This document shows, in pieces, positions 3,762 through 16,957 of a stretch of DNA of 64,000 nt. Source of the DNA: a virus; IMG/VR virus record IMGVR_UViG_3300031715_000001, positions 1 through 64,000 of that record; one strand, given 5' to 3'. The first letter of the stretch is position 1. Every line of letters begins with the position of its first letter. A model generated the notes under the pieces. It worked only from the letters and a program-made list of their open reading frames with translations, searched no databases and was not told where the DNA came from. Both the position numbers and the translations under genes were made by a program.

Positions 3762-4212
3762 ATTTGCCCGGCACTGAAGGTTTTACTTCGGTCTTTCGCC
3801 GTGCTTGAGCTTCTGCCAAGGACGGCTCACCCGTCGGAACGCGCCCGGTTAGTTCTTGCAATATTCGCTCCAGTTTTGCGATGTAGGCCAAGGCTTCGGT
3901 GAGCCTGCTGTTGACCAGGATATGAATCTCGCTCTGGGTCTCTTCAATGCCCGCTAGAGCAATGTTGGTTTTACTGGTGGTGGCAACGAGGGCAATGCGT
4001 GCATCCTCGACTTTCATTGCAATCTCGGCCGCCGCGGCTGTCGATTCTTTGTGGGCGGCAATTGTCGCAGCCTCGGTTCTGTCGTGAGCCTCGCGCGCCA
4101 GCTTGGCATTGCGATTCGCAATGAAGGTATTCACCAACGTTGCGATCGGGTTGGCCGCGATCACTCCAAAAGCTGAGATGGCCGCAGCCAGCGGAACATT
4201 GTTCAAATCCAC
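3760..4212 (-). CDS. Membrane-anchored coiled-coil protein (holin/lysis-associated?)
   Basis: N-terminal hydrophobic helix; EIHILVNSRL segment; lysis-block context. Confidence 0.5.
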   Translation of the reverse strand: MDLNNVPLAAAISAFGVIAANPIATLVNTFIANRNAKLAREAHDRTEAATIAAHKESTAAAAEIAMKVEDARIALVATTSKTNIALAGIEETQSEIHILVNSRLTEALAYIAKLERILQELTGRVPTGEPSLAEAQARRKTEVKPSVPGK

Positions 4213-4371
4213 TTAAATACCACCACGGAAAAAGATGAGCAGCAGGAAGATCACCAGCACCAGGCCGATGACGCCGATCCCACCACCAGCACCCCACTGG
4301 GAGTAGCCATACCAACCGCCTCCTCCACCGAAGACCAAGAGCAGGATGATGATCAACAGAATTAATCCCAT
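4213..4371 (-). CDS. Small Gly-rich membrane protein (DUF3309-like)
   Basis: MGLILLIIILLLVFGGGGGWYGYSQWGAGGGIG. Confidence 0.7.
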   Translation of the reverse strand: MGLILLIIILLLVFGGGGGWYGYSQWGAGGGIGVIGLVLVIFLLLIFFRGGI

Positions 4372-4373
4372 GT

Positions 4374-4655
4374 TCAGATTTCCTTTGAGTGTGTGTCCAC
4401 GCAATCGGTGGCGAGTGGCTGATCGGCCAGGAGTTTCACTGGCTGAAGTTTGTTGTTAAACGTCAATTGCTGAAGCCAGACGTCTCCGGTGAAGAGAATT
4501 TGCAGCCGTTCCAACCAAGTTGCATGCCAGCGCGAGGTGACCATACCGTCCGACCTGATTAGAGCGGGGAGTTCCTCGTACTGCGGTTGACCGGCGCCGA
4601 TGTTGCGTTCGGTTAAACCTGCGACTTCGTGGAGTACGGGCGATGCGGGTTTCAT
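4374..4655 (-). CDS. Hypothetical phage protein
   Basis: QPQYEELPA..SRW..W.ERL.ILFTG.VWLQQLTF; coupled to neighbours. Confidence 0.65.
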   Translation of the reverse strand: MKPASPVLHEVAGLTERNIGAGQPQYEELPALIRSDGMVTSRWHATWLERLQILFTGDVWLQQLTFNNKLQPVKLLADQPLATDCVDTHSKEI

Positions 4656-9389: not shown

Positions 9390-10049
9390 TCACTTCGATA
9401 AAGGACGTGCCCATTCTCTATTGATCGGTACGCCTACGCTGCGTCCCATCATTTCAATATTGACTACCAAGCCCCACTGATCCTTGCCCTTGAACTTGCT
9501 CAATATTCCGATACGTCCAACCAGTGGTCCGCAGATAATCTCGACCTTCTGGCCGATTACAAGCGGAATCGAAGCGCAGGGTAATCCACTCGCTAGCATG
9601 GCCCTTATCGTGTCAATCTCAGCCTCGGTGACGAGCGCCGGCGCTCCCAGGCAGCTCAGAATCTTGACCACTCCGAAGGTCTGCAATATCCGGACACGTT
9701 CCTCGAAATCGAACTTGCAGAAAAGATAGCCGCGAAAGAGCGGGATGTCCAATACGACTTTGCGGTCATGCCACTTTCTCAGCTCTTTGGAGGTTGGTAA
9801 GTAGCGTTCGTAGCCTTTTGATTCCAGATCTTGAGAGACGATGGATGCATGTCTTGGATTGACCAGCAGTACTTTCCAGGGTTGGATCAGTTCATTGTGA
9901 ACGATTGGTTCGTCCGCGCCAATCTGTCGACCAGTGGCATCCGCAAATGGGCGGCCTTGTCCTGCGGATAAGCAGGGGGACCCGCCTTCGCTCGGGCCGA
10001 TGGCGCGAGGTGGAACGCCCGGTGCCCCGGCGATCCGTTCATCCGTCAA
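9390..10049 (-). CDS. NusG paralogue (RfaH/UpxY-like antiterminator); N-terminus formed by an A+B element
   Basis: YLPT..RKWHDRK..PLFRGYLFC (NGN); KVEIICGPLVG (KOW). Confidence 0.88.
   Translation of the reverse strand: MTDERIAGAPGVPPRAIGPSEGGSPCLSAGQGRPFADATGRQIGADEPIVHNELIQPWKVLLVNPRHASIVSQDLESKGYERYLPTSKELRKWHDRKVVLDIPLFRGYLFCKFDFEERVRILQTFGVVKILSCLGAPALVTEAEIDTIRAMLASGLPCASIPLVIGQKVEIICGPLVGRIGILSKFKGKDQWGLVVNIEMMGRSVGVPINREWARPLSK
9911..10040 (+). repeat. Family A element with nested B, long tail
   Basis: cgtccgcgcca..[B]..tggcgcg..ccgg..ccgttc. Confidence 0.8.
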
Positions 10050-10589
10050 CTACTTCTCTCGTTCCTTGGTCGTCAGATCGTGCTTGATGCCTTCGTCGAT
10101 CGAGATGGGCGCCCAGGTTGGCCCGCTTGGCCCGGCCTGCAGCACTGTCCCAGATCCACCAGGGTTCACGGCAAGATCGGATGACCCGGTGATTGCCGCT
10201 GAGGTGTTCACCGCATTCCAACTCGGAGTTATCCAGGCGCTGGAACCGTAATAACAGCCACGACTGGCGTACTGGCTGGAGTCGGGGACTAAGGCTCTGA
10301 AGTCAGCGGAGAATTGAACCTTTTCCCATCCGGGGATGTAGGCTTTTTCAACCTTGCCGTCTTTCTTGCTTGGCTTCGCGTCTTGGTCGATCGTGTACTT
10401 CTCGGCGACATAGACCTTGACGTCCTCCCATTGCTTCTTGGCATCCTGGTAGGTCTTGTAAGCCTTCGCCAAGTGGTCAGAATCCGACTTGTCGACGATC
10501 ATGATTTTGGCTTCCTGCCCGCGAGCGAGGAGCGCCGTAAATCCAACCACAACCAGGATTGTGATTCCCAACATAACGAGAGCTTTCAT
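10050..10589 (-). CDS. Exported protein of unknown function
   Basis: Signal peptide MKALVMLGITILVVVG. Confidence 0.6.
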   Translation of the reverse strand: MKALVMLGITILVVVGFTALLARGQEAKIMIVDKSDSDHLAKAYKTYQDAKKQWEDVKVYVAEKYTIDQDAKPSKKDGKVEKAYIPGWEKVQFSADFRALVPDSSQYASRGCYYGSSAWITPSWNAVNTSAAITGSSDLAVNPGGSGTVLQAGPSGPTWAPISIDEGIKHDLTTKEREK

Positions 10590-10635
10590 TCAGGTTTTCC
10601 TTTCATTGAAGACGCTTCTATTTCGCGATCAAAAT

Positions 10636-10761
10636 AAGCGAAACACCGGGGCATGCGTCAGTGTGCTCCGCGCCCGTTCGGCATCGACCGAAGACGGGTG
10701 GCTTATCCGCTGGACAAGGCCGCCCATCCTGGATGCTAGTAGTCAGGAGAGCGCGAGACGG
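10636..10761 (-). repeat. Family A element with nested B, long tail
   Basis: rc ccgtctcgcgctctcctg[B]acgggcgcggagca..cgctt. Confidence 0.9.
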
Positions 10762-10897
10762 CGAATCGTGATCGGGACATACCTCCGGTACAATCGGTAA
10801 CATTTCAGGTATTTCACTTAACTTCTGAGAGTTTGCCGTTCAATATAAGGTGTAGGTTGAGGGGGTTGAAAGTGTCGCTCGAAGTGTCGCAGTACTT

Positions 10898-11479
10898 CTA
10901 GGCGGCCGCTAACATGGATGGACCAGGCGACAGACGGATGATCCGGTCGTATTCATCGCGGAGTTTCTTGACGGCGCGTTTCTTCCGCTGTTTGAATTGC
11001 GAAGGGGAGATATTGAGATCCTTTTGGATCTGTGCATCCGTGCGATGCCCGAAAAACGATTGACGCACGATCTCCCGATTCAGTTCGGGCAGTTTTTCGA
11101 GCAGGCCGTGTAATATTCCTGCACGCTCGGCATCCGATTCCGCGCGTAACAGATCCAGCTCCTCGGTCGGCGGCGTCGCCAGATGTACGGGGAACGGAAT
11201 CACTTTTCTGATGGCGGTCGATCGTGCTTCCAGGGCGTCCGCCCGCAGGATCAGCGCTATTCCACGGGCGTAGGCTATCGGGAAGTCCGGATGTTCGATG
11301 CGGTTCTCCTGGATCGCTTCTAGAACACGCGCGTTCAATTCCTGCAGGAGATCCCTGGCCGTTTCTTTCCCGAGGGAGACGAAAAAGCGTTCGCAGTGAT
11401 TCTTGAGGGCTCCGGCCAGGGCTTTCAATGCTGCCGGCTTGTGGGCCTGAACTCCGTCGTGGATCTCGCGCTCGGTCAA
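10898..11479 (-). CDS. ECF-like sigma factor
   Basis: DLLQE..VLEAI; LEKLPELNREIVRQSF..QIQKDLNISPSQFKQRKKRA. Confidence 0.7.
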   Translation of the reverse strand: MTEREIHDGVQAHKPAALKALAGALKNHCERFFVSLGKETARDLLQELNARVLEAIQENRIEHPDFPIAYARGIALILRADALEARSTAIRKVIPFPVHLATPPTEELDLLRAESDAERAGILHGLLEKLPELNREIVRQSFFGHRTDAQIQKDLNISPSQFKQRKKRAVKKLRDEYDRIIRLSPGPSMLAAA

Positions 11480-11624
11480 GCAGCCTTTTTGTCCGGCGCC
11501 TTCAAGTCGTGGATCTCTTTCTCTACCGCCTTGATCTTGGATTCCAAGTCCTCTTGCCGTTGGATCAGCGCGTTACGATAAGCCTGACGGTCTTTCAGCC
11601 GTTCCTTGCGTTGTCCGTCGGTCA

Positions 11625-12059
11625 TTACTTCACCTTGGCTACAACTTCCACCGGCCTCCAGCCTGTCTTCTCCCAGGTCAGGAACTTTTTGATTTCATCC
11701 TCGGACAAGTCGGTCTTCTTGAGCGCATCCTGGGAGATTTTGCAGATGGAGAAAAACACCGCGCGCGTGAGCCGCTTCAGAAGCTTGCCCATGTCCGCTA
11801 TCCTGGCTTCGTTGCGGCGCGGCCCCACGATTACCTTAAACTGCTCGCCTTCGATGTAGCAGGGCAGCGTAGCGGCGGCATTATCAAACTTGGCCCGGCA
11901 CTCCTTCGTCAATTCATCCTCGAGATCGATGTCGCCTTTCAACTCCGCAAGGATGGGCTTCAGTTTGGATCGAAGTGCTCCAAGGCGGTCCGCGATAGCT
12001 GGCCAATCTCCTACCGCTGGGCGGGTTGACGCAAAAACTTCGGCGGGTTTGCTGCTCAT
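11625..12059 (-). CDS. Hypothetical phage protein
   Basis: ORF in operon-like arrangement. Confidence 0.55.
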   Translation of the reverse strand: MSSKPAEVFASTRPAVGDWPAIADRLGALRSKLKPILAELKGDIDLEDELTKECRAKFDNAAATLPCYIEGEQFKVIVGPRRNEARIADMGKLLKRLTRAVFFSICKISQDALKKTDLSEDEIKKFLTWEKTGWRPVEVVAKVK

Positions 12060-12410
12060 GACTATAGGGTCGAAGTGAGCGAGTAAAATATTTACGTCTT
12101 TTTTTTAACCAACGGGCGGGCGGTAAAAGCGGGTAGAAGGTGGTGGGGAGCCGCGCTGCACTTAAAGATGTTTCTGGCCAGCGACCGACCCTCAGCAAGT
12201 AGGCGCAGATCGACGGACTAAATCGGCAACGGCCCTAGCAGGCTGGCCACGCACCGACTCCAGCCAAGCACCAGCCGCTATCCATTCGCTAAGCTGGCTT
12301 TCCGTTCAAACGGGCAACGGTATCAATCGACAGGCCACGTGACGCCTGCTGCCCTCCGGCTGCCCCTGCTATGGCCCTACACTTCCCGGCTGACCAGAAA
12401 CACCCGAATC

Positions 12411-12857
12411 TTAGCACGCGCTCGCTCTCATCCTCTTCAAAGCCTGGTGTGAAATCACATTCACTGTAATCGTCTTTATCCCGAGCGACCGAGCGATCTC
12501 CTGAGTTCCCTCGCCGGCCGCCAGCCGGTCCACCACCACTCTTTGCCGCGGGCTCAGCCTCAGCATCAGCCTCCGAACGATCCGGCCCCGCTCCTCTGCG
12601 ACGGCCAGCTCCTCGGGAGTGAGACAGGCCGATTGCAGCTCCTGACCGCGCCCGTTGACAGGAGGGCGCGAAACGTTAGAAAGCCCATGATGTAATAAGC
12701 TGGATCCTTCGGATATCCGTACTGGACTCAGTTCCACATGGAACTCATCTTTCCATTCAGACCTTACGAAATCTAGCATTGCTCCCCTAACCCTGTCCCT
12801 TACAAAGGGCCAGAATGGTCCGATAGAAGGTTCATAATACTCAGCTTCCAGTATCAT
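12411..12857 (-). CDS. Sigma region-4/LuxR-type regulator with internal family A hairpin
   Basis: RVRGAMLDFVR (sigma region 2-like); LSPRQRVVV..EIARSLGIKTITV. Confidence 0.7.
   Translation of the reverse strand: MILEAEYYEPSIGPFWPFVRDRVRGAMLDFVRSEWKDEFHVELSPVRISEGSSLLHHGLSNVSRPPVNGRGQELQSACLTPEELAVAEERGRIVRRLMLRLSPRQRVVVDRLAAGEGTQEIARSLGIKTITVNVISHQALKRMRASAC
12647..12675 (-). repeat. Family A hairpin (intragenic)
   Basis: rc cgtttcgcgccctcctgtcaacgggcgcg. Confidence 0.9.
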
Positions 12858-13100
12858 GGCGACTATCCCTATGCCCTCTAAGTCCTTTATTTCGAAGCAG
12901 GGTGGAAGCGTCTTTTTGAGGCGCCGCGCGAGCGTGTGGATACGGCCGAGGTGCTGGATTAGAAACGTGTCCCGTTCGGCTTGGCTCGTAAAGGCTCCTT
13001 AACGGTTCCTTCCCAAGCCGGTCTCAGCGGTTTATGGCATCCTAGCTAGTAGAATCACTAGGTTTAGACCCTAGCCTGTGCTCAATATGGATGGATAGCA

Positions 13101-13631
13101 ATGGGAAGCGGACCGGTGCAGCGAAAGGCCCACAGCCACGCCGATAAGTATTCGACCGTGCTGAAAAACATTCTGCCGGGCCGCCTTTTGCTGCTGAGGA
13201 GGATACACTCGCTTTCCCAGAAGCAGGCCGCCCGGCGCCTAGGCATTGCGGTCTCGACGCTCAACGCAATCGAGGGTGGGCAAGCTAACGATCTCAAGTT
13301 CTCGACGCTCTGCAAGATGTCGGAGTGCTTTCGGGTCTCGATCGACTATCTCTTAGGTTTGGAACGGCAGCAGGACCTAGTCCGCGGCTTCTACGATCAG
13401 GGTGTCTTCCGGTACTACACGATCGAGATTTTCGAGGACGGCAACTCCCCGAGGAAATGCTTCTATTGCGGCTGGCCATTGAACCCTCACCGCTCGCACA
13501 GCATCCCCGAGTGCATGTTGATGATGCACCAACGGAATCAGGACTATCAGTTCATCGCGAATCGCTTTGGGTTCAGCGTGAAAGGTGTTCAGACGATCAT
13601 CGAGGAAGAGATTGGAATACTCAGGTCTTAG
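13101..13631 (+). CDS. XRE-family HTH regulator with C-terminal Cys/His and second HTH-like segment
   Basis: LSQKQAARRLGIAVSTLNAIEGG..FRVSIDYLLG. Confidence 0.85.
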   Translation: MGSGPVQRKAHSHADKYSTVLKNILPGRLLLLRRIHSLSQKQAARRLGIAVSTLNAIEGGQANDLKFSTLCKMSECFRVSIDYLLGLERQQDLVRGFYDQGVFRYYTIEIFEDGNSPRKCFYCGWPLNPHRSHSIPECMLMMHQRNQDYQFIANRFGFSVKGVQTIIEEEIGILRS

Positions 13632-14812
13632 CGGTTTATGGGTGGACGCACTCCCACGACTACAACTTTGTGCCTATGGGATTCGGCGGTATTAACGCAG
13701 ACTGCTTCCGAAGAAGTCTGACTGTCTGCTTCCGGCCAAAGGCGGCGACACGCCTCTAAGATCGACTTCGCGGCGTTCTGGTCCCGGTCGTGAACCTCGC
13801 CGCACTTTTCGCAGGTGATGATCGTCTCCGAGAGAGCGACATCCTGAATATGCCCGCAGCAACTCATGCGTTTGGTGGAAGGATCGAAGCGTGGCATCTG
13901 AGCGAACAGACGGCCATATTTTTCGCAAAGCCATTTCTGTTTCAACAGATAACTCGAAAATCCGAGGTCGCTGACCTTACGACCCCAAAGAGCCTTCATA
14001 CCGGAAATATTTAGGTCCTCAAAAGCCAACGCGTCAAAGCGACTCGCCAAATCATACGCCGTCTTCCAGTGAAAATGCCGGCGCTTATTGGCTAACGAAC
14101 GATGAAGCCGTGCCACATTCAGACGCGCTCTTCGGCGCGAATTGCCGCCTTTCGCTTTGCGGGAAAGGCTTCGGCTGGCACTCCTCAATTGCCTGAGAGC
14201 GTGCTTGAGCGGTTGCGGAGAAACGATTTTCTCTCCGCTGGAAAGCGTGAGGAAGTTCCTTAACCCAAAATCCGCGCCTGTGGTTTTACCAGTCTTGACG
14301 AGAGGTTCGGGTATCGGAACTTCCGCACACGAGAAGGATACGAAATATCGCCCGGTTGTGTCCCGGCTGATTGTGACGGTTTTGATCATGCCGAGCACTG
14401 CGCGCGATTGATGAAACCGGTAGAGACGCCCTTGAATACGTAATCTGCCGGGGCCAAGCAGTTTCCAACCGTTCTGCTTTAGTGTGAAACTCTTGTACTT
14501 ACGGCGGGCGCGAAAGGTCGGCGGGCGTTTGATTTCCTTTTTGAAGAAGGCATCCCATGCACGGTACATCCGGTCAGTTACGGCCTGCACGGCTTGGCAG
14601 TCCACTAGCCTCCAATGCTGAAAGCGCGTGCGGCGTAGTTTTGCGAGATGCCGCTGGAGATGACTCTGCTTGAGCGTCTTATGAAAGATCTTGTAGTAGC
14701 GCCGATGGAGTGCCACCGAGTGGTTCCAGATATGAGCGGAGACATCAATCGTGCGGCTCAAATGCTTCGTTCGCCCGGACCTCATTAACTGAAACTTGAA
14801 TGATTGCCTCAT
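13628..14812 (-). CDS. tnpB: TnpB (IS200/IS605 family RNA-guided nuclease), no TnpA nearby
   Basis: RuvC motifs GADFG, FEDL, DRDQNAA; Zn finger CC..CEKC. Confidence 0.93.
   Translation of the reverse strand: MRQSFKFQLMRSGRTKHLSRTIDVSAHIWNHSVALHRRYYKIFHKTLKQSHLQRHLAKLRRTRFQHWRLVDCQAVQAVTDRMYRAWDAFFKKEIKRPPTFRARRKYKSFTLKQNGWKLLGPGRLRIQGRLYRFHQSRAVLGMIKTVTISRDTTGRYFVSFSCAEVPIPEPLVKTGKTTGADFGLRNFLTLSSGEKIVSPQPLKHALRQLRSASRSLSRKAKGGNSRRRARLNVARLHRSLANKRRHFHWKTAYDLASRFDALAFEDLNISGMKALWGRKVSDLGFSSYLLKQKWLCEKYGRLFAQMPRFDPSTKRMSCCGHIQDVALSETIITCEKCGEVHDRDQNAAKSILEACRRLWPEADSQTSSEAVCVNTAESHRHKVVVVGVRPPINR
13642..13760 (-). ncRNA. Predicted omega-RNA scaffold / element right end of TnpB 1 (5' limit approximate)
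   Basis: GAATCCCA..GTCGTGGGAGTGCGTCCA resembles IS605-type right ends (GAATCCCACG..CGTGGGAG..TCAA). Confidence 0.55.
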
Positions 14813-14903
14813 TACCGGACCATCTGGATATCTCCAGTATGCGCTGGAATGCCCGTATTTGTTAGGTCTAAACGCATGCTATTAAGTACCCGGTACGAAA
14901 CAG

Positions 14904-15890
14904 TCACAACCCGTTCGCGCTCCGAAGAATTGAAGTATTCGGAAATTCTCGGACTCTGAGATCGTGCATGACGGTTGGCCATTGATCCCAATCTCCACCT
15001 TTTTTGCCGCCGAGTTGGAGTGGAACGTATCCTTCCGGGCAGCGGCCGTGATTTCTAGCACTGAGGAGCGGCGTCGGGGTGAAGAAACGCCACGCATCCT
15101 CGCGCATGATCGGAAGTGCTCCGGCCTGCTTGAAGAAGAACGGTATTCCCTGGGCGTCGCATTGGACCTTGATCCTGCGCGCCCATGCAATATCGAAAGG
15201 CCTCGCCCCTGGTCCGCTCTCCCCGCCAACTATTACCCAGTGGATCCCCGTCAAATCTAATTCACCGATGTCCTCTAATAGCGGCTCAATCGATAGGAAG
15301 CGGATGGCGGCCGGCGTCTGGCGCAATAGGTCGATGCGGTTCTTGCGAAGAGGGTCTTCAACCGACGCACCCTCCCAGACATTCGGCAGGGGCCACTGGA
15401 ATTTCCAATCCACCCAATTAGCCTTACCCTCCCAGTTGGCGATGATGTCGATGGCGCAGTCTTCCACTTGTTCACTGAATCTCGAATCACTAAACGAATC
15501 GAGTCGCAGCTCCGGCCTCTTAGTAAGAACTTGATAGTTGTGCCAATTTGCTGCCGCCATGACCGCATACACGTCGATCTGGTCTCCGGACGAAAGTTTC
15601 TCGTGCCAGAGGTCGCTCATCGAATTCACAAAGATGTTTTTGGGATCTAACCAGTGCAGTGGATCGGCGATGCGCTTTTCCACCATTCGAACCTCCCCGG
15701 TCCAGGCCGGATGGCCATTGACGATGTGAACGAGGCCTTTGTACCCGGTGTTCTTCTGCCGCAGTGCCTGGCGTTCCGCATAGCAGTTCTTGCAACCTGG
15801 GGAAATTCGCGAGCAGCCTCGTGTTGGATTCCACGTTTTTCCACGGCTGCCATCGGCACCACGTGTCCATTCAATGTTGGTGTCGGCCAT
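14904..15890 (-). CDS. DUF5131 / phage Gp37-Gp68 family radical-SAM-like protein
   Basis: TNIEWT..TWNP..GCSRISPGCKNCYA, FVNSMSDL, LTKRP, WVIVGGESG, FFFKQ. Confidence 0.92.
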   Translation of the reverse strand: MADTNIEWTRGADGSRGKTWNPTRGCSRISPGCKNCYAERQALRQKNTGYKGLVHIVNGHPAWTGEVRMVEKRIADPLHWLDPKNIFVNSMSDLWHEKLSSGDQIDVYAVMAAANWHNYQVLTKRPELRLDSFSDSRFSEQVEDCAIDIIANWEGKANWVDWKFQWPLPNVWEGASVEDPLRKNRIDLLRQTPAAIRFLSIEPLLEDIGELDLTGIHWVIVGGESGPGARPFDIAWARRIKVQCDAQGIPFFFKQAGALPIMREDAWRFFTPTPLLSARNHGRCPEGYVPLQLGGKKGGDWDQWPTVMHDLRVREFPNTSILRSANGL

Positions 15891-16505
15891 TTACAGTACG
15901 TCCTCCATGCACAATTCCTCGATGATTCTATCGCTCGGGATATAACCCTTGCTTATGCATTCATCCAAAAACGCGTCCAGAGTTTTGGTGTTCTTACTGC
16001 TATTACATGGACCGCAGGCCGCGATCAGATTCCCTCGATGACTACCACCGCCGTTTTTCACGGGTATTGCGTGATCGATAGTGGTGGCTTTTCGGATTTG
16101 ACAGTATGCGCACAGACCGAAAAATGAGTCTATTACCAGTTCCCTGTTTCTTGGACTGATAGGAGATGTATTTCTATTTCTGGCGTACACTCGTGCTCGA
16201 ATCCTTTGCCCACCAGAGCCAGCGTAATATTTTCGGTACCCGATCCTAGCTGTTTCGCGCCGTTCCGCAGGCGATTTAAGACGTTGGGACGGTTTGTAAC
16301 CTCGGCAGCTTGCCGCTAGACCATCGCCCCTAGATCGATCTATAGGGAAAATCTGCCTGGAATGCCAGATCTTGCATCGAGTACACCATTTCTCCCCTAG
16401 CGCCAAATGTGCAATATAATCCCCTGGCGATATACCCAGTCGTTTGGCCGCTGTTTTCTCGTGCCACGTCGCGTCAGTCCACTCGATGTTGGTCGATTGA
16501 CTCAT
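15891..16505 (-). CDS. HNH endonuclease with DUF5131-like N-terminus
   Basis: CAYC..TIDHAIP..GG..NLIAACGPCNSSK; N-terminal MSQSTNIEWTDATW. Confidence 0.88.
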   Translation of the reverse strand: MSQSTNIEWTDATWHEKTAAKRLGISPGDYIAHLALGEKWCTRCKIWHSRQIFPIDRSRGDGLAASCRGYKPSQRLKSPAERRETARIGYRKYYAGSGGQRIRARVYARNRNTSPISPRNRELVIDSFFGLCAYCQIRKATTIDHAIPVKNGGGSHRGNLIAACGPCNSSKNTKTLDAFLDECISKGYIPSDRIIEELCMEDVL

Positions 16506-16957
16506 GCCGTGGCCCTCCGCATTGGCGCAAGCACTCTCACCGGCGGTTCAAGCCAGCACTGCCAGTGCCCCAGGAAGGGAAGCCGACCGTCCCAGAAACT
16601 CATCATTTCCTCGAAGGATTCAAAGCCGTCGAAGATGGCTAGGCGCTCACGCTCGTCCGGTTGAAGTTCGACGAGGTCCCATCTACTTTTATGACAGCTT
16701 ATGACCGACCTTGGAACCCTGATTCGAGGCGATATCCAGACTCGGTGTCTTTTCGTCATGAAGATCGACATCAGGGCTACGCACACGGGCGCAGGGTCGA
16801 TGATCAGCAGAGCCGGTTTCACTTGACGCAATCCGTGGAAGAGATGCATAGGCTCTCCGACCTTTTGTGGAAAGCGCCGGTACGCTCGTATCGTTCCGCC
16901 CTTCGTGCCGCGCGCGATGGGGTCGATAAAGCGTCGTTGAAAATTGAACGAAGCCAC
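16502..16957 (-). CDS. ASCH-domain protein
   Basis: FQRRFIDPIARGTKGGTIR..LFHGLR..LAIFDGFESFEEM. Confidence 0.75.
   Translation of the reverse strand: MASFNFQRRFIDPIARGTKGGTIRAYRRFPQKVGEPMHLFHGLRQVKPALLIIDPAPVCVALMSIFMTKRHRVWISPRIRVPRSVISCHKSRWDLVELQPDERERLAIFDGFESFEEMMSFWDGRLPFLGHWQCWLEPPVRVLAPMRRATA

Follow-up and report, generated by a model that had tools for sequence, protein, structure and literature searches.

The first 64 kb of a 106,688-bp virus record in IMG/VR (IMGVR_UViG_3300031715_000001, an estimated ~97% complete; this stretch of 64,000 nt is referred to as the window) contain a stranded element of the IS200/IS605 family of insertion sequences (IS), which consists of an intact tnpB open reading frame (ORF) with its omega-RNA and adjoins the 3' end of a phage gene for an XRE-family regulator. 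We found that the predicted guide of this TnpB, i.e., the DNA beyond the right end (RE) of the element, is native flank of the XRE gene, and that 18 nt of it recur with one mismatch on the other side of XRE. With a probability of about 0.5, we presume that the upstream 18-mer is a duplicate without a transposon-associated motif (TAM), which together with the downstream 18-mer brackets an XRE cassette, and that TnpB takes no action there.

The RE boundary lies at 13643/13642, where ~146 distinct relatives diverge right after the equivalent 13-nt end GGGAGTRYGTCAA. The alignment of four of them (L163-L166) with the window is continuous to ..GGGAGTGCGTCAA (..GTCCA in the window, ending at 13643) and then breaks, and pairwise blast of the relatives' elements stops at the same point. 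Because the homology of the relatives ends at the RE and their flanks diverge, the guide starts at 13642, and the 18-mer repeat, which starts one base after the RE, corresponds to guide positions 2-19. Guide and upstream site disagree at two positions, 1 (C versus G) and 14 (A versus G), and match at the 12 contiguous positions 2-13. Among the ~146 relatives, a nearby guide match was present in only two, L136 and L095, and that of L136 (15/17) is probably due to chance. A copy of the terminal motif GGGAGTGCGTCCA at L068:439 was considered as a possible close relative and rejected as a chance match, since it had neither flanking homology nor a tnpB beside it.

The sequence GGTCTYAGCGGTTTATGG has exactly two occurrences in the 106.7-kb record, at 13020-13037 and 13624-13641, which are 17/18 identical and 604 bp apart. 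These two were also the only matches in the window at <=3 mismatches (shuffle mean 0.05; 0/100 shuffles reach 2) and in the whole record at <=4 mismatches. The similarity is sharp-edged on both sides, and since local alignment of the flanks ends exactly at 18 nt, a longer degenerate repeat around the two copies was rejected. A tandem duplication of an XRE unit was likewise rejected, because different sequences follow the two copies and XRE occurs only once, and so was the old donor site of a local hop, because precise excision would leave an adjoining TTAC and there is none. XRE ends within the downstream copy, with its last two codons and the stop (AGG TCT TAG), and the copies differ only in T13629 versus C13025, the former being the base that makes the XRE stop. 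As the closest XRE homologue (P0122) ends at the same residue, the downstream copy is the native XRE flank, and the guide is thus an ordinary consequence of insertion 11 nt after the stop codon. In a pattern scan of IMG/VR with the core of the 18-mer (15 specified bases), 28 hits were obtained, none of which extended beyond the pattern and which we read as chance. Another 18-nt direct repeat (16/18), with CGGCTGGCCATTGAACCC in XRE (13469-13486) and CGGTTGGCCATTGATCCC in the 3' part of a DUF5131 gene (14972-14989), brackets tnpB; it was rejected as meaningful, because an estimated ~0.05 such pairs are expected by chance in the region and the copies lie in unrelated reading frames.

An earlier note on this DNA, made from the letters alone, had described much of this anatomy, and its description of the repeat was borne out: the 17/18 match at 13020-13037 is real, it lies upstream of the XRE start within the divergent region, and its minus-strand flank is ..CTAGCTAGGATG as given there. 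The note had placed the guide directly beyond the right end, which was right within one base for the boundary; the guide itself begins at 13642, so that the repeat is not its first 18 nt.

The element cannot move, because tnpA is absent from the phage, the left end is absent and the TCAA of the RE reads TCCA. In agreement with the earlier note, no match to Y1 tnpA (PF01797) was found in six frames of the 106.7-kb record (controls were positive), and neither a left-end hairpin nor TTAC nor tnpA is present in the 92-bp spacer before tnpB. Of the relatives for which DNA was available, the closest, L163 and L166, have a divergent Y1 tnpA and a left end, and solo relatives have their left end ~170-210 bp upstream of tnpB. 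The RE cleavage motif is TCCA in the window versus TCAA in every listed tnpB-linked relative. On two metagenome contigs with a 56-57% identical tnpB (L164/L165), the part homologous to the complete element L166 extends no further upstream than the tnpB start codon; these represent a second relative without a recognisable tnpA or left end upstream, and no nearby guide match was found in them.

By contrast with the lost mobility, the protein looks nuclease-competent from its sequence. The 394-aa tnpB ORF matches PF01385 OrfB_IS605 (RuvC; 85 bits, 5e-24) and PF07282 Cas12f1-like TNB (44 bits, 2e-11), both above the cut-off, and the protein aligns to ISDra2 TnpB (8BF8; E 3e-33). The RuvC triad, which the earlier note had rightly called intact, consists of D181 (GADFG), E265 (AFEDLN) and D344 (HDRDQN), is invariant in 25 relatives and aligns to the catalytic motifs of ISDra2; the zinc-finger cysteines are also invariant among the 25. 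More than 1,700 TnpB homologues were found, of which the closest are metagenomic with 80-56% identity (80-67% for the closest proteins, P0003-P0016), and metagenome and genome scans yielded mostly relatives of 40-48% identity, plus L163 (69%) and L164-L166 (56-57%).

The omega-RNA also looks sound, as judged from its predicted fold. RNAalifold predicted 23 pairs for 14 family members including the window; compensatory changes are seen in 14 of these pairs, and the window conforms to the consensus. Rfam had no match in 12000-16000. A 7-nt insert (ACAAAGT, 13661-13667, minus strand), which has no counterpart in all aligned relatives, lengthens the terminal omega-RNA/RE hairpin, and the hairpin is kept. 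Relatives have a stop codon in the hairpin loop, where their proteins end with ..AESHxL; in the window the insert abolishes this stop, and the ORF therefore continues for a further 13 codons, by read-through into RE and guide sequence, and terminates within the guide.

In IS200/IS605 elements, the TAM is the motif that abuts the left end. L163 and L166 have a common ..TTAC where their homology begins, in multi-copy cyanobacterial elements TTAC comes after flanks that are unrelated to each other, and TTAT is found at the left-end junction in a gut-phage clade. All relatives with a mappable left end (36-69% protein identity to the window) had either TTAC or TTAT. On the non-target strand, the upstream site reads 5'-CTAGCTAGGATG-CCATAAACC, and guide position 1 is preceded by GGAT instead of TTAC; the site has a GGAT(G)/GATG flank and a mismatched guide position 1 in place of a family TAM. 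Canonical recognition of 13020-13037 by TnpB is therefore unlikely, as far as sequence allows a judgement. Moreover, no TTAY-flanked site with a seed match >5 nt was found in the phage, which means that the phage lacks a canonical self-target, consistent with self-tolerance. In ISDra2, the residues Y52, S56, K76, F77, Q80, T123 and N124 contact the TAM according to published structures. At positions mapped from these contacts, the window protein has Q53, Q73, Q76 and Q113, as in the TTAC group. Position 53 (the equivalent of ISDra2 S56) is Q in TTAC elements and K or S in TTAT elements among the loci L017-L242, and may be a determinant of the last TAM base. Y52 and Q80 have been named as TAM-contact residues (10.64898/2026.09.22.753285). 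The native targets of TldRs are reported to carry the TAM of related TnpBs, from which TldR TAMs are predictable (PMC10705468). Since the TAM of the window protein is taken from its relatives, these results weaken the idea of a regulator but fall short of refuting it.

When characterizing the XRE regulator with HMMER, we observed that its family comprises proteins of ~150-200 aa with an N-terminal helix-turn-helix (HTH), a second HTH-like stretch and a C-terminal domain with invariant C120/C123/H133/C138 (C-x2-C...H...C); >25 full-length cluster representatives were aligned (proteins P0122-P0177). Pfam matched only the N-terminal HTH of the window protein (residues 28-88). P0122 was the only close relative (52% by BLASTP) and ends at the same position as the window XRE. 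Full-length homologues were also obtained from other phages (L275 and L276), and neither of the two is accompanied by a tnpB or by a flanking repeat of high identity. The XRE-tnpB association is, on the loci compared, a singleton and no recurring module.

Upstream of XRE, the 18-mer ends 13 nt before a -10-like TAGAAT (13050-13055) within the 243-bp divergent region. The earlier note had reported this hexamer, which is present; a consensus scan called no promoter there or at the upstream site. The motif GTTTAGACC, said in the same note to precede both XRE and tnpB, indeed occurs in the whole record only at 13062-13070 (+) and 14865-14873 (-), and 4/100 shuffles give at least 2 copies. The XRE copy is separated from its ATG by 30 nt and the tnpB copy by 53 nt; a -10-like hexamer (TAGAAT and TAATAG, respectively) precedes each of them at a distance of 5-6 nt, and the XRE copy is surrounded by a partial palindrome, CTAGGTTTAGACCCTAG. 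GTTTAGACC may be a shared operator or a transcription-start motif.

From these results, the following course of events is proposed. An IS605-family element would have inserted just past the 3' end of the phage XRE gene, and would then have lost its left end and tnpA, while mutation of the RE cleavage site left an immobile tnpB with its omega-RNA. The guide would be an ordinary product of the insertion, made of the last two XRE codons, the stop and 11 nt after the stop, and would canonically cleave a TTAC-flanked, element-free copy of the XRE junction. The DNA event that joined the cassette to its neighbours, i.e., insertion of the cassette or duplication of the RE flank, most likely gave rise to the upstream 18-mer as a by-product; the 18-mer would be tolerated because it has no TAM and is mismatched at the first seed position, so that TnpB would not act there. 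A comparable case was found in L095, a metagenome-assembled genome of Calothrix sp., in which a 310-bp direct repeat (2124-2433 and 4163-4490) brackets an IS605-type element with a divergent upstream ORF and tnpB. Of that repeat, the downstream copy has its first base precisely at the RE boundary, and in front of the upstream copy there is CTCC instead of a TAM, which indicates that RE-flank duplicates starting at the boundary occur without any sign of targeting.

Several points weigh against this explanation. The repeat starts one base from the RE boundary and its length of 18 nt is that of a guide; if the XRE gene was brought in as a cassette or the repeat existed beforehand, such an alignment would be a coincidence of an estimated few percent, unless one event made both. 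We identified no mechanism for an 18-bp duplication: the XRE cassette has no terminal inverted repeats, and no compositional (GC) break separates the 586-bp bracketed segment from its flanks. The tnpB and omega-RNA are intact despite the lost mobility and could have been retained by selection, and the upstream site lies in a plausible promoter region of the neighbouring regulator. In addition, C72 (S or A in aligned relatives) and N114 (S, A or C in most) are unusual residues of the window TnpB at candidate TAM-contact positions, so that a changed TAM specificity is conceivable.

The earlier note had favoured a domesticated RNA-guided regulator or a self-targeting switch, and had offered an XRE cassette between 18-bp direct repeats as the alternative; of the two, the cassette fits the anatomy better. 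For the regulator, the TnpB-omega-RNA complex would bind 13020-13037 in the divergent promoter region of XRE and the sigma-like gene and repress XRE in a Cro-like manner, or would cut there, with single-strand annealing between the two 18-mers then deleting XRE. We consider this unlikely. It is kept alive mainly by the alignment of the repeat to the RE within one base and by its guide-like length, and it would account for a match contiguous at guide positions 2-13, located 64 nt before the XRE ATG and close to TAGAAT in a cluster of regulatory genes, for the preservation of protein and omega-RNA in an element that no longer moves, and for GTTTAGACC upstream of both starts; owing to the mismatch at position 14, binding could prevail over cleavage. 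Indeed, binding without cutting has been described for ISDge10 TnpB, a nuclease-competent protein, with a guide of 10 nt (PMC13507860), and TldRs are TnpB relatives able to repress promoters, also in phages (PMC10705468). However, the site has neither TTAC nor TTAT, so that an altered TAM would be needed; a family TAM that does not agree with GGAT(G) is one of the outcomes that the earlier note itself had named as contradicting its inference. Across TldR clades, a dependence of binding on the TAM is reported to be near-universal (10.64898/2026.09.22.753285). In addition, there is the mismatch at the first seed base. The RuvC site is intact, which it is not in TldRs, the consensus scan called no promoter at the site, and the pairing of XRE and tnpB is found once: the match expected by the earlier note in homologous loci was missing, both beside the XRE homologues L275/L276, which lack tnpB and a flanking repeat, and in L164/L165, which lack a guide match. 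A more elaborate form, in which an immobilised, nuclease-competent TnpB was recruited to regulate XRE via an altered or relaxed TAM and the shared GTTTAGACC provides for mutual repression, i.e., a CI/Cro-like toggle with one RNA-guided arm, seems rather improbable.

The duplication could also be explained without TnpB, if the two 18-mers were an operator pair for a phage DNA-binding protein (XRE or a neighbour) flanking the regulator gene, and the IS had inserted beside the downstream site. Flanking operators are a known phage architecture, with OL and OR of lambda on either side of cI, and a sharp-edged 17/18 repeat that brackets a regulator gene in a divergent, switch-like region would suit it. 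Inspection of the 18-mer reveals no dyad symmetry, and the 106 kb contain no additional degenerate copies, which weakens the operator reading; the XRE homologues of L275/L276 have no comparable flanking repeat, and an RE abutting the site within one base would again be a coincidence estimated at a few percent. We regard such an operator pair as quite doubtful. A still different role, which appears very improbable, is that the guide serves as a weapon against kin and targets TTAC-flanked copies in related phages, e.g., in an XRE promoter, with the phage's own copy lacking the TAM and the first seed base. A nuclease that appears intact would be of use here, and the changed TAM and seed base at the self-match mirror the self-avoidance of TldR-bearing prophages, whose fliCP promoters are reported to escape self-targeting via TAM and seed changes (PMC10705468). 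On the other hand, no IMG/VR contig had the 18-mer plus extended flanks or TTAC, no close relative of the phage region was found, and at least 3/4 TAM bases would have had to change. Stranding of the element beside a TAM-less duplicate remains our preferred explanation.

The locus lies in a run of minus-strand genes (9.4-17 kb), among which XRE is the only plus-strand gene called from 9390 to 16957 (Table 1). XRE is divergent from a sigma-like gene, with 243 bp between them, and convergent with tnpB, with which it overlaps by 4 nt (13628-13631); the stop codons of both ORFs are inside the 18-mer (XRE TAG at 13629-13631, plus strand; tnpB TAA at 13630-13628, minus strand). With blastn, 12300-16000 matched no GenBank phage, and tblastn with XRE and TnpB as queries yielded no close hits. 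IMG/VR was scanned with TnpB, XRE and the sigma-like protein one by one, also without matches. A search with DUF5131 returned distant phages only, without synteny. On another phage contig (L015:1990-2787), a DUF5131 gene is also directly upstream of a tnpB of the same family (43% identity to the window TnpB), and this shared adjacency may reflect chance or a preferred insertion context.

Table 1. Features of the tnpB-XRE locus and its surroundings (window coordinates).
Feature	Position	Strand	Remarks
Antiterminator-like gene	9390-10049	-	
Sigma-70 region 4-like gene	10898-11479	-	
Sigma-70 region 4 / LuxR-like regulator gene (sigma-like gene)	12411..12857	-	Pfam GerE + Sigma70_r4; PHROG sigma factor
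Upstream 18-mer copy, GGTCTCAGCGGTTTATGG	13020..13037	+	64 nt upstream of XRE ATG; matches guide positions 2-19, 17/18
Segment bracketed by both 18-mers, 586 bp	13038..13623	+	TAGAAT 13050-13055, GTTTAGACC 13062-13070, nearly whole XRE ORF
XRE-family regulator, 176 aa	13101..13631	+	Pfam HTH_3 1e-8; PHROG transcriptional regulator
Downstream 18-mer copy, GGTCTTAGCGGTTTATGG	13624-13641		Overlaps XRE 3' end, adjoins tnpB right end
Predicted 19-nt guide, CCCATAAACCGCTAAGACC	13624..13642	-	DNA beyond RE; native DNA after XRE gene
tnpB ORF, 394 aa, IS200/IS605 family	13628..14812	-	Pfam OrfB_IS605 + TNB
RE terminal motif, GGGAGTGCGTCCA	13655..13643	-	Relatives ..GTCAA; TCAA cleavage motif is TCCA here
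Predicted omega-RNA scaffold, overlaps tnpB 3' end	13643..13790 (5' limit approximate)	-	RNAalifold
Spacer, 92 bp, DUF5131 stop to tnpB ATG	14813..14903	-	Carries GTTTAGACC at 14873..14865
DUF5131 phage gene, directly upstream of tnpB	14904..15890	-	Pfam DUF5131 1e-75; phrog_2045
HNH endonuclease gene	15891-16505	-	

If the upstream 18-mer is a mere TAM-less duplicate, the locus is no more than an IS605 element in ordinary decay within a phage. It would then serve as a caution that a self-match of guide length alone is insufficient for calling an RNA-guided regulator; the TAM deduced from relatives must fit and the pairing must recur at other loci. If the minority reading of RNA-guided control were true, the locus would hold a transcriptional regulator derived from TnpB that retains its nuclease and acts on the adjacent gene in a phage switch, which would extend the TldR concept.

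Among known systems, the element is closest in its parts to the IS605 group (Y1 tnpA plus tnpB and omega-RNA, with a TTAC target as in IS608), with which it shares the Pfam domains, the RuvC triad and the zinc finger. With this group and its solo-tnpB derivatives, which are common in cyanobacteria and gut phages, it also shares an omega-RNA that overlaps the tnpB 3' end and a terminal hairpin, as well as the GGGAGTRYGTC.A end and a guide made of the DNA beyond the RE. It differs from them in having no left end, no tnpA and no TTAC junction, in an RE with TCCA for TCAA, in the 7-nt hairpin insert that removes the usual stop, and in a second, TAM-less guide copy 604 bp away. TldRs, including the prophage clade associated with fliC, resemble it as phage-borne TnpB relatives without a transposon context and with a guide match in a promoter-like region of a non-transposon gene. 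However, TldRs are nuclease-dead with a degraded active site, whereas the RuvC of the window is intact, its site has no cognate TAM, seed position 1 is mismatched and no conserved gene association is seen; moreover, the match spans 18 nt, compared with a reported ~9-11 nt in oppF-associated TldRs (PMC10705468). L095 shares with the window a copy of the RE flank that recurs nearby without a TAM, but there the repeat is 310 bp long, recurs upstream of the element, with one copy on each side of the IS, and is located within and immediately behind an ORF, whereas in the window it is 18 bp long and brackets the neighbouring gene.

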